A model generated the notes under the pieces. The model did not search any database and was not told the origin of the DNA. It saw only the letters and a list, made by a program, of their open reading frames with translations. The position numbers and the translations under genes are program-made. Shown here one piece after another: positions 6,372 through 52,672 of a DNA stretch of 64,000 nt. Position 1 is the first letter of the stretch. Every line of letters begins with the position of its first letter. Origin of the DNA: Escherichia coli (GTDB taxonomy: Bacteria > Pseudomonadota > Gammaproteobacteria > Enterobacterales > Enterobacteriaceae); assembly GCF_030013205.1 (NCBI RefSeq), contig NZ_CP122648.1, one strand, 5' to 3'.

Positions 6372-6551
6372 GATAAATGGCACTCCTTCGGTTAGTGAAA
6401 CGAGAAAACCAGATAAAGTTCGATTGCGGCCTGGCACAGGGGCGCTAATTATACTCATCTCTGCGCCGCTGGGGAGGGGAAATTTAGGGGTAATAGTAAT
6501 AAATTGTATGCAAAAGCCACGCAAAAAGCATGGCTCTGAATATTTTTGCAC

Positions 6552-8027
6552 TTAAATATGATGAATAATCACTTTGTTGCCCCCCTCGCTTTTCGCTTCG
6601 CGTAAGGCTTTATCTGCTTCCGTCATGACAAGCGAGATATTACGTGTGTCACCCGTTGAAAAAACCGTGCCAATACTGATGGTCATTTGCTCAGGAACAT
6701 CATATCTGTTACTAAAGCCGGTCAGGAGTTCGACATTTTTACGCATACGTTCCGCAATGATTTTTGCCTGGGCACTATTGAGTTCGGTAAATAGCAAGCC
6801 AAACACCTCACCCTCCAGTCGCGCTAAAATATCATCGGGGCGGATGCTTTGCTGGATAATATCGACAATTGAAACCAGCACTTTATCACCCACACGATGT
6901 CCCCATTGGGCATTGATGCGTTTGAACTGATTAATATCAACCAGCATGACACAGAAGTCCTTAACAACAGGTCGCGACAATAATGACTCTACGCTGTTGA
7001 AAAAGTAGCGCCGATTATAAATATTGGTCAGTACATCATGAACTGCCAGTTTGCTGGAGAGTTGCAGTTCCTGAAAAATGTTATAAATCAGAAAAGACAC
7101 CACAAACAGTTTACTGGAAACTTCAATCCCGCGACTGATATACCAGATGGTATAATTATACTCATCCAGAGTCAGTAGAAGTAAGTTGCAGCATAGCGAT
7201 GCCAGACATAATAATGCTATTAACGGCCATAGTTCGCTGGCTAATCGTGTACGCATGATAATAAAGAACAGTAAAAATGCCCACAGACAAACCAATATTT
7301 TTGTATAGTTGATTCCCCAGGTCGCAGTATGGTTGTCCGGACAGTAATCGACGACATACAAAGAATAGTCAGCGTTATAACTGCTCAGATTGTGTGCCAG
7401 AAGGGGAAAAACTAAAAAAGGGATCAGCGCCAGCAACAGTATTCCCGTTTTTTTCTTATTATTGTTCAGGATGTTGTCTTTACCATAACAAAAGAGCGCC
7501 AGCGAGGTTAAACAAATGAAACTGAGTTGGCGGAAAATATAGAAAATAGAAACATCATTCGACTTTGTCTGGATCAGTGTACTGCCGTTGATTGGTTTAT
7601 GGATAATTACAATGGTTTCAACTAAATAGATAAGGCCACTTAAAAACGCAAGGCTTAAAATGAGTGTTGGTAAAATTTGTTTGTTAGTGAAATATTTCAT
7701 TAACATGAAAAGAAAAATGACGGCGTTAAGGAAAAACAAAGCCACAACAACCATCAGGTAATTCATCTGTGGGATGAGTTTTACATTCGTGTTTTCGTTA
7801 TATAAGTTAGTAATGCAAAATAAAATTAACGTCAGCAATAAACTGAAAATAAAAAAGCCTTGAGCTTTTAATTTTTGTGTACCCATAGAAGCCATAAAAA
7901 GGAGAGCAATGTGAGTGCTGGATTTTATTGATGGCAGAGATATATAGTTTTGACCAGGATCAATTTTCGTTGACGATAAAAAATAATTAAAGAATAACCC
8001 CAGGGAAATACGTATTGACCGAATCAT
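6552..8027 (-). CDS. dgcI: GGDEF-domain membrane protein DgcI (YeaI/CdgI) with degenerate active-site motif
   Basis: ORF 6552..8027 (491 aa); multi-TMS N-terminus; active-site motif reads EGEVF instead of GG(D/E)EF. Confidence 0.85.
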   Translation of the reverse strand: MIRSIRISLGLFFNYFLSSTKIDPGQNYISLPSIKSSTHIALLFMASMGTQKLKAQGFFIFSLLLTLILFCITNLYNENTNVKLIPQMNYLMVVVALFFLNAVIFLFMLMKYFTNKQILPTLILSLAFLSGLIYLVETIVIIHKPINGSTLIQTKSNDVSIFYIFRQLSFICLTSLALFCYGKDNILNNNKKKTGILLLALIPFLVFPLLAHNLSSYNADYSLYVVDYCPDNHTATWGINYTKILVCLWAFLLFFIIMRTRLASELWPLIALLCLASLCCNLLLLTLDEYNYTIWYISRGIEVSSKLFVVSFLIYNIFQELQLSSKLAVHDVLTNIYNRRYFFNSVESLLSRPVVKDFCVMLVDINQFKRINAQWGHRVGDKVLVSIVDIIQQSIRPDDILARLEGEVFGLLFTELNSAQAKIIAERMRKNVELLTGFSNRYDVPEQMTISIGTVFSTGDTRNISLVMTEADKALREAKSEGGNKVIIHHI

Positions 8028-45401: not shown

Positions 45402-46208
45402 TTAGCGGCGGAAGGTCGCCCAGACGGGGGCGTGATCGGACGGTTTTTCCATGCTGCGGATTTCATAGTCGATGCCGGTTTCTACGCAACATTCTGCCAG
45501 CGGTTGGCTGGCGAGAAGCAGGTCGATACGCAGACCGCGGTTATCGTCAAAACCTTTTGAGCGGTAATCAAACCATGAGAAACGATCGGCTGTTTGCGGA
45601 TTCGCCTGGCGGAAGGTATCGACCAACCCCCAGCTCATCAGTCTCTCCATCCATTCGCGTTCTTCCGGAAGGAAAGAGCATTTTCCGGTACGCAGCCAGC
45701 GCTTACGGTTCTCTTCGCCAATGCCAATATCCAGGTCGCCAGGACTGATATTCATATCGCCCATAATCAGCACCGGATTTTCACGCTTGAGTTCGGTTTC
45801 CAGGTAGTTTTGCAGATTCTGATAAAACTGCGCCTTTGCCGGGAATTTTATCGGATGGTCGCGGCTTTCACCCTGCGGGAAGTAACCGTTGATCACGGTG
45901 ACATTGCCCAGCGGTGAGGGGATTTCCGCCATAATAATCCGCCGCTGCGCCTCTTCGTCGTCACCGGGAAAACCGCGACGCACGGCAATCGGCGTCTCTT
46001 TGGTCAGCAGCGCCACGCCATAATGGCCTTTCTGCCCGTGATAAAACACGTTGTAGCCGAGCTTCGCCACCTCTTCGAGTGGAAACATATCGTCATGAAC
46101 TTTTGTCTCCTGCAGGCCAATCACATCCGGCTGGTGCTTTTCGACGATGGCTTCAAGCTGGTGAGGTCTGGCGCGCAGGCCGTTGATATTAAAAGAGACA
46201 AATTTCAT
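45402..46208 (-). CDS. xthA: Exodeoxyribonuclease III XthA, 268 aa
   Basis: ORF 45402..46220 trimmed to ATG 46208 ([14 protein letters not shown]...). Confidence 0.95.
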
Positions 46209-46473
46209 AGTCGCTGCCATTTATTCAGATAAAGAGTGCGTGGATGGTAGCAGAATTTCGCTTTGCGTACCGCCTGTTGTTAAGTGATTTGATCGATGGT
46301 TGTTAATGATGTCAACGATGGCGCAAAAAATGCCCGCTTTTGGTGCGCGCTGCGTCAGAATGGCGCAGTAATTTCCAGTAAATTTCGTCAATGATCACAA
46401 TTCCAGAATTATATTTTACTTCTGCATAACATTGCGTTTTTTATTCACCCACATCGCAAACGTATTCACTTTA

Positions 46474-46492
46474 TATGCACTTTAAATGCATA
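46474..46492. promoter_or_regulatory. Palindrome TATGCAC-TTTAAA-TGCATA upstream of astC; candidate ARG box (ArgR site)
   Basis: Perfect 6-bp arms with AT-rich spacer about 90-110 bp upstream of the sigma54 start; a second ARG-like half TATTCACTTTATAT directly upstream. Confidence 0.35.
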
Positions 46493-46556
46493 TGGTTTGG
46501 TTATAACTCCTTGATTTCCAGTTAGCCTCCGCCGTTTATGCACTTTTATCACTGGC

Positions 46557-46572
46557 TGGCACGAACCCTGCA
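46557..46572 (+). promoter_or_regulatory. Sigma54 (RpoN) -24/-12 promoter of astCADBE
   Basis: TGGCAC-GAACC-CTGCA matches TGGCAC-N5-TTGCA (GG and GC spaced correctly). Confidence 0.65.
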
Positions 46573-46608
46573 ATCTACATTTACAGCGTAAACATTACTT
46601 ATTATTAA

Positions 46609-52672
<6,064 letters not shown>

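Follow-up and report, generated by a model that had tools for sequence, protein, structure and literature searches.

The control region of the astCADBE operon of E. coli is well studied, and its sigma-54, NtrC, ArgR, IHF, sigma-S and ArcA elements have been dissected experimentally in work dating from 1998 to 2013. For ast, a regulon table gives RpoN, RpoS, ArgR and NtrC. In the accessible papers, ArgR is described as an accessory activator of sigma-54-dependent ast expression in both E. coli and Salmonella. The astCp2 promoter itself is described in the accessible literature as a weak promoter that is naturally bound by ArgR, and it is grouped there with E. coli glnHp2 as a weak promoter that needs an architectural protein. 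The canonical ArgR operators (argI, argF, argA, argECBH and carAB P2) are built differently, with two 18-bp boxes that are separated by 2–3 bp and overlap a sigma-70 promoter, and at these operators ArgR is a repressor.

The DNA analyzed here, henceforth referred to as the window, is a 64,000-nucleotide stretch of an E. coli genome. The interval under study (46474–46590) lies within the 436-bp xthA–astC intergenic region, 55–171 bp 5′ of the astC ATG (46645). In the RefSeq annotation of an identical strain, astC, astA and astD are encoded on the plus strand and xthA is encoded divergently on the minus strand, and the same xthA/astC arrangement is present in K-12. The 551 bp surrounding the interval were matched in 5,424 of 5,426 complete E. 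coli genomes and were 100% identical to the sequence found in a group of porcine ETEC strains. The locus is the same as the astCp2 locus of E. coli K-12 (Kiupakis & Reitzer 2002; Bonocora et al. 2015, site OS17). Between 46474 and 46590 the window carries a single substitution relative to K-12, T for C at 46587. It falls downstream of the motifs, and the two strains share the 17-bp sigma-54 motif, the ARG half-sites and the IHF core without change.

The interval is assigned, with a probability of roughly 90%, as the core of the astCADBE control region, combining a sigma-54 promoter with a cluster of ArgR half-sites, an IHF core and tandem NtrC-like dyads (Table 1). The first-pass annotation, which had recognized an astC sigma-54 promoter with upstream palindromes in this interval, is thus correct and ordinary: the region is already known, no new biology follows from that finding itself, and its main value is as a calibration point. 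Conservation was assessed in 80 orthologous loci, drawn from some 25 genera of Enterobacteriaceae, of which 79 distinct sequences were used for site scoring.

Table 1 Features of the xthA–astC intergenic region in the window. Offsets with a minus sign are counted from the predicted sigma-54 start.
Feature	Position	Strand	Basis or remark
NtrC-like dyad 1, TGCCCGCTTTTGGTGCG (about -252 to -236), putative UAS upstream half	46331–46347		9/12 match to TGCACC-N5-GGTGCA
NtrC-like dyad 2, TGCGTCAGAATGGCGCA	46351–46367		9/12 match; centre 20 bp from dyad 1
Conserved block, AAATTTCG-N6-GATCACAATTCCAGAATTATATTT	46379–46419		Most conserved stretch of the intergenic region
Upstream ARG box, TCTGCATAACATTGCGTT	46421–46438		6.1 bits; pairs with neighbouring weak boxes
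Main ARG box, ATTCACTTTATATGCACT (-119 to -102)	46464–46481		11.8 bits; right half serves as left arm of the inverted repeat
Imperfect inverted repeat, ATATGCA-CTTTAAA-TGCATAT	46473–46493		7-bp arms, 7-nt asymmetric spacer
Left half of second ARG box, AATGCATAT	46485–46493		3 bp past the main box; is the right arm of the inverted repeat
IHF core, AATCAAGGAGTTA (consensus WATCAANNNNTTR), centre about -73	46504–46516	-	Consensus match
ARG-type half-site, TTATGCACTT (-47 to -38)	46536–46545		Adjoins the -24 element on its upstream side
Sigma-54 -24/-12 element, cTGGCACGAACCCTGCA (astCp2)	46556–46572	+	Sequence match, ChIP-seq, conservation
Predicted sigma-54 start (motif centre + 19), 62-nt leader	46583	+	Rule of Bonocora et al. 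Table 1, recomputed on K-12
ArcA-P operator, four direct repeats at 11-bp spacing, astC leader	46591–46633	-	Park et al. 2013 Table S4
Inferred sigma-S type promoter, -10 TATTAT (46600–46605), start near 46612	46600–46612	+	ArcA footprint numbering
astC CDS, succinylornithine transaminase, first gene of astCADBE	46645–47865	+	ORF and annotation

The arrangement can be compared with that of described systems. The ast region of Salmonella enterica (Lu & Abdelal 1999; Samuels et al. 2013) carries the same -24 and -12 elements as E. coli and has the ARG box, a TGAAT half-site and the IHF core at the E. coli offsets, while its -24/-12 spacer differs. Compared by description, E. coli glnHp2 is like astCp2 in that an enhancer is followed by a bending protein and then by a weak sigma-54 promoter; unlike glnHp2, astC has ArgR in addition to the IHF core, which ties the architectural step to arginine. 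A scan of 46100–46800 against Rfam returned no match close to threshold.

ArgR half-sites and the inverted repeat

ARG boxes were scored with a position weight matrix built from 20 boxes recovered by consensus search of the K-12 argA, argECBH, argD, argF, argG, argI, argR, carAB, artJ and artP promoters. The recovered boxes are the classical ones, and their scores range from 8.0 to 22.7 bits. The main ARG box is the best-scoring position in the intergenic region and ranks second among the 63,983 positions of the window, inside the training range. It fits the 18-bp imperfect palindrome WNTGAATWWWWATTCANW, and 90% of the 79 orthologs have 6 bits or more at this offset. The adjoining half-box reaches 10.2 of a possible 11.7 bits, both in the window and as the ortholog median, and half-box scores of at least 10 bits occur at 0.036% of window positions. 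Its pentamer reads TGAAT, the ARG consensus, in 65/79 orthologs and TGCAT in 12/79, with E. coli among the latter. This second box has no right half (median -13.6 bits), and the arrangement is therefore a non-canonical site of about 1.5 boxes and not a canonical two-box operator.

The likeness to canonical ArgR operators therefore extends to the half-site family, to the 3-bp gap between boxes and to a main-box score within the range of known boxes. The astC site departs from them in that the fourth half-site is missing, in its location approximately 100 bp upstream of the start, and in the positive action of ArgR reported in the literature.

Further ARG-type sequences flank this site. In 53% of orthologs, the position of the upstream ARG box scores 6 bits or more. 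The right-type half-site beside the -24 element has a median score of 10.7 bits, with 94% of orthologs at 8 bits or more, and is an exact 10-bp copy of 46474–46483. A half-site had also been proposed next to the palindrome, and it does exist, as TATTCACTTT at 46463–46472; together with TATGCACTTT at 46537–46546 it forms a direct-repeat family (D1). Double-box placements of at least 6 bits were found 7 times among 127,925 in the window, and two of these seven are located in this intergenic region, where two pair registers 11 bp apart score alike. Conservation shows 46464–46493 to be a cluster of ArgR half-sites in helical phase between -120 and -90. The main text of an ArgR ChIP-exo paper does not mention ast.

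The inverted repeat was described in the first-pass annotation as a perfect palindrome at 46474–46492. Comparison of TATGCACTTTAAATGCATA with its reverse complement, TATGCATTTAAAGTGCATA, demonstrated that 3 of the 19 positions break the symmetry, and the repeat is more accurately described as arms of ATATGCA (46473–46479) and TGCATAT (46487–46493) flanking an asymmetric CTTTAAA. Inverted repeats of this size are common by chance, with 87 in the window (1.36 per kb) and at least one in 31% of shuffled 436-bp intergenic regions, so the palindromic symmetry is in itself unremarkable. Because the repeat spans the point where two ARG boxes meet, it is not the unit that ArgR recognizes; ATGCA-N7-TGCAT has the geometry of the junction between ARG boxes set 3 bp apart (ATTCA-N7-TGAAT). 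The palindrome is an Escherichia-specific by-product of two conserved ArgR half-sites, and its symmetry is an accident of E. coli, which reads TGCAT where most relatives read TGAAT. Since the right arm in Salmonella reads TGAAT, no palindrome is present there.

It is unlikely that the repeat at 46474–46492 is instead a self-contained single ARG box in which the palindrome is what ArgR recognizes. The E. coli sequence does score 7.3 bits in the register 46475–46492 and 4.3 bits in the register 46474–46491, 30% of orthologs have 6 bits or more in the latter register, and pairing would be possible with a box at 46453–46470 that has an ortholog median of 6.0 bits. Both registers, however, fall below the weakest training box (8.0 bits), and the better one collapses in orthologs to a median of -3.6 bits. 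The 7-nt spacing of the arms suits the junction between two boxes and not the 4-nt centre of one ARG box, and the conserved main box, only 10 bp away, scores higher in the window than either register.

A chance feature of AT-rich intergenic DNA, to which no protein binds, is a very improbable explanation of the repeat. The frequencies given above for the window and for shuffled regions speak for such a feature, but both arms are kept as ARG-type half-sites over about 25 genera while the spacer and flanks vary. This conservation covers the half-sites, though not the palindromic symmetry.

There is likewise a very slim prospect that the repeat is an operator for NsrR, the nitric-oxide-sensing repressor, of the 11-1-11 form AANATGCATTT-N-AAATGCATNTT (half-site consensus per PMC6391409). 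The sequence TATATGCACTTTAAATGCATATG (46472–46494) matches 17 of the 20 specified positions; no other such match occurs in the window, where 0.03 would be expected. This comparison is post hoc, however, and single half-sites occur in the window at chance level (12 versus 9.1 expected). Among the 79 sequences, only 3, the window included, match with four or fewer mismatches, the commonest counts being 7 and 8 of 20; the right half turns to TGAAT in orthologs, and the match is specific to Escherichia. A site so far from the starts (about 100 bp upstream) is not typical of a repressor, and a search of the accessible literature for a regulatory link between NsrR and astC found none.

The first-pass annotation had left open whether the palindrome is an ArgR or an NtrC site. 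The ArgR alternative is upheld by the ARG matrix and by conservation, whereas the NtrC alternative has a minute probability. The repeat contains TGCAC and TGCA and is located upstream of a sigma-54 promoter, as an NtrC enhancer site would be, but the 30 matches to TGCACC-N5-GGTGCA found in the window at three or fewer mismatches do not include it, and its right half, TGCATA, agrees by eye with GGTGCA at 2 of 6 positions at most. An NtrC identity for the palindrome is wrong because the conserved tandem NtrC-like dyads are found instead at 46331–46367, 110–140 bp further upstream.

Taken singly, these dyads are at chance level, since the 30 window matches at three or fewer mismatches compare with 32.5 expected. 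As a tandem pair spaced by 20 bp at a fixed offset, they score 17.0/24 in orthologs versus 12.4/24 in shuffles, and the GC...GC doublets 13 bp apart in the dyads are invariant across orthologs. The dyads are assigned to NtrC as a prediction, because the published NtrC binding to this region is cited second-hand. The operon is an NtrC ChIP-seq target, with a published bin at 1830021–1830101; this bin overlies the promoter and not the predicted enhancer approximately 230 bp upstream.

The sigma-54 promoter and downstream elements

The first-pass annotation had placed an RpoN promoter, TGGCAC-N5-CTGCA, at 46557–46572, about 70 bp upstream of the astC ATG. These positions are exact to the base, with 73 bp separating the ATG from the 3′ end of the element and 88 bp from its 5′ end. 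Within the TGGCAC-N5-TTGCW consensus, TGGCACGAACCCTGCA has its GG (46558–46559) and GC (46570–46571) exactly one helical turn apart, and its single deviation is a C for T ahead of GCA. A search of the 64-kb window with TGGCACN5YTGCW returned this one match against 0.18 expected, and 18 of 100 shuffles contained at least one match. The motif match alone is thus only weakly above chance, and the weight of the assignment comes from position, conservation and published ChIP data.

The pattern TGGCA(C/T)G...TGCA is kept in all 80 orthologous loci, 87–92 bp from the ATG, while the intervening spacer bases vary freely. The astC -24/-12 element is a textbook phylogenetic footprint with a position fixed across the family. 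In E. coli K-12, Table 1 of Bonocora et al. 2015 (PMC4591121) lists site OS17 upstream of astC with the motif CTGGCACGAACCCTGCA centred at 1830087 (U00096.2), 1 bp from the centre of the corresponding sigma-54 ChIP-seq peak at 1830088. With the K-12 ATG at 1830006 (U00096.2), the OS17 motif centre corresponds to window position 46564, which is the centre of 46556–46572. The same paper relays that the astC sigma-54 promoter is flagged as experimentally confirmed in EcoCyc. An orthologous site, TGGCACGAATGCTGCAAT, was reported by sigma-54 ChIP-chip in Salmonella (Samuels et al. 2013).

That TGGCAC-N5-CTGCA is fortuitous and astC is transcribed solely from a downstream sigma-S/sigma-70-type promoter is refuted already by the published ChIP data, in spite of the 18% chance of one pattern match in the window and of a second start near 46612, since the sigma-54 peak is centred 1 bp from the motif, the Salmonella site is orthologous, the element is conserved in 80/80 loci around a free spacer, and ast both appears as a target in NtrC ChIP and belongs to an expression module dominated by NtrC. 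The nitrogen and arginine control of the pathway, with which the motifs had been said to agree, is borne out by the literature, in which ast is a target of NtrC by ChIP-seq and ArgR assists the sigma-54 promoter as an accessory activator. A scan of the intergenic region with the sigma-70 consensus found no plus-strand promoter.

Evidence for IHF at astC by DNase I footprinting is given in Table 1 of Ernst et al. 2008, citing Kiupakis & Reitzer 2002. At the same offset as in the window, 75 of 79 orthologs retain the IHF core, and the 28 versions of the 13-bp core present in these sequences differ solely at the degenerate W and at the four N positions. The two copies of TATGCACTTT are placed symmetrically, 31.5 bp on each side of the centre of the IHF core. 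A bridged ArgR-IHF complex built on these symmetric copies was considered but set aside, as direct repeats across a U-turn give no dyad.

The astC leader contains the operator of phosphorylated ArcA. Table S4 of Park et al. 2013 gives the ArcA site as U00096.2 1830018–1830060, CAGTAAATAATTCGTTATTTATATGTTAATAATAAGTAATGTT, and this published 43-bp site, with its TGTTA-type repeats, is the exact reverse complement of window 46591–46633. A 44-bp ArcA DNase I footprint and a 10.6-fold derepression in an arcA mutant were reported in that study, whose numbering of the footprint, -22 to +22, counts from the Fraley et al. 1998 start site. The start implied by this numbering, near 46612, follows the predicted sigma-54 start by about 29 nt and fits the separate RpoS-dependent promoter reported for astC (alias cstC). 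When mapped start sites are compared with the -24/-12 element, as had been proposed, the start derived from Park et al. is that of a separate sigma-S promoter, so there is no conflict and the position of the -24/-12 element is not contradicted. The conserved TCTACATTT (46574–46582), considered as an alternative sigma-S -10 element with a start near 46589, was unsupported; the ArcA numbering implies a start near 46612. Positions 46572–46588 are invariant across the orthologs.

The literature and the anatomy of the region, taken together, suggest how these elements could cooperate. Published data on the identical K-12 sequence show that RNA polymerase carrying sigma-54 binds 46556–46572, in a closed complex with its predicted start near 46583. 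When nitrogen is limiting, phosphorylated NtrC at the distant enhancer (about -250 to -215) would loop to the closed complex, and this contact would drive formation of the open complex. Arginine-loaded ArgR (about -170 to -90, plus the half-site at -47 to -38) and IHF (-73) may bend the intervening DNA and so raise the efficiency of enhancer contact at the reportedly weak sigma-54 promoter. ArcA-P bound to the four direct repeats of the leader would repress by blocking both promoters, and the separate sigma-S promoter about 29 nt downstream would serve stationary phase. We infer this looping and bending mechanism, which agrees with the ArgR-dependent superinduction that earlier papers describe.

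A conserved 41-bp block and a 9-bp deletion allele

Two further features of the intergenic region, a conserved block and a deletion allele, are mildly interesting by-products of the analysis that none of the accessible sources accounts for. The 41-bp block exceeds the NtrC and ArgR sites in conservation, contains an invariant GATC (46393–46396) and stays with ast at loci where xthA is not the neighbour. A perfect TATAAT is present on the minus strand, from 46413 to 46408, without a -35 element. A divergent xthA promoter is disfavoured as the explanation of the block because the block persists without xthA and because this -35 element is absent. Scores of the block with the ARG matrix are weak. 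A CRP site was also rejected, as only the TCACA half fits, at 7 of 10 positions, and inspection by eye for CpxR, Fur, TyrR, FNR, Fis and Nac gave no convincing consensus match.

Lrp is listed as a direct activator of astC in a ChIP-seq preprint. As a tentative and rather doubtful suggestion, the block could bind a further regulator of arginine catabolism that is so far undescribed, with Lrp as one candidate, and the 9-bp deletion could change arginine superinduction in the lineage of the window.

The deletion distinguishes the window strain from K-12, relative to which one copy of the 9-bp tandem repeat TTTTTATTC is missing between 46438 and 46439. The copy lost by the window is present in about 99.6% of complete E. 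coli genomes, K-12 included, and the deletion allele was found in 22 of 5,406 genomes, in a lineage consisting mainly of porcine ETEC. The deletion site is located between the upstream and downstream ARG boxes, where the loss removes one ARG-like box pair of K-12 and shifts the predicted enhancer and the conserved block 9 bp nearer to the ArgR-IHF-promoter module.

A nine-base-pair deletion upstream of astC

The astC control region of the window strain contains one copy fewer of the 9-bp tandem repeat TTTTTATTC than the corresponding region of K-12. Of the complete E. coli genomes compared, 5,406 in all, only 22 have the short allele, and its carriers are for the most part porcine ETEC, accompanied by four related isolates, three of which are labelled human. 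As determined by pair scoring with the ARG position weight matrix (PWM), an ARG-box pair located at -171 in K-12 is lost through the deletion. The distance between the NtrC-like enhancer and the promoter is also 9 bp shorter in this allele. Coordinates and sequences of the features described here are collected in the table.

Features in and around the astC control region and elsewhere in the window
Feature	Position	Strand	Sequence or basis
ARG-box PWM match	6535-6552		TCTGAATATTTTTGCACT
Conserved stretch adjoining xthA start	46236-46258		TGGATGGTAGCAGAATTTCG (plus-strand sequence)
Conserved block	46379-46419		AAATTTCG-N6-GATCACAATTCCAGAATTATATTT
9-bp deletion	junction 46438/46439		K-12 equivalent GCGT[TTTTTATTC]TTTTTATTCACC
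ARG-type half-site, two copies	46474-46483 and 46537-46546		TATGCACTTT
Stretch after -12 element	46572-46588		AATCTACATTTACAGCG
ArcA-P operator, four direct repeats	46591-46633	minus	exact sequence match, Park et al. 2013 Table S4

Conserved sequence in the intergenic region

The highest conservation within the xthA–astC intergenic region was observed in the block AAATTTCG-N6-GATCACAATTCCAGAATTATATTT, exceeding that of the NtrC- and ArgR-like sites. The block is kept at orthologous ast loci where the neighbour is not xthA (L052, L062, L066, L069 and L079). Within it lie the palindrome AATTC-CA-GAATT and a GATC that is invariant; its minus strand includes a perfect TATAAT, and an Lrp-like 15-mer in the block agrees with the Lrp consensus at 12 of 15 positions. 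A preprint lists astC among the direct Lrp-activated targets.

The sequence AATCTACATTTACAGCG, which runs from immediately past the -12 element to approximately +6, is nearly invariant across genera. Such invariance downstream of a sigma-54 -12 element is unusual. Counted from a putative start near 46612, the same stretch occupies -40 to -24, and it may be in use by the downstream sigma-S promoter or by the sigma-54 fork-junction region. Further downstream, the conserved AT-rich repeats of the astC leader (direct-repeat family D2) are the published astC ArcA-P operator.

NtrC signal and additional sites

The published NtrC ChIP-seq bin for astCADBE (U00096.2 1830021-1830101) corresponds to window positions ~46550-46630. 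This bin overlies the sigma-54 promoter, not the predicted enhancer ~230 bp upstream, and comparison of two published tables places the bins of glnK and ddpX likewise at their sigma-54 promoters. Such a position could arise from coarse peak calling or from cross-linking through a loop.

The two identical 10-bp copies of TATGCACTTT lie 63 bp apart, and the IHF core, centred at 46510, is midway between them, 31.5 bp from each; their spacing is free of indels in nearly all orthologs.

On the minus strand, the conserved stretch adjoining the xthA start carries TGCTACCAT, an extended -10-like element that, read by eye, is probably the xthA promoter. The best ARG-box PWM match of the whole window (15.4 bits) is located in the cdgI–dgcJ intergenic region and is a possible ArgR site.
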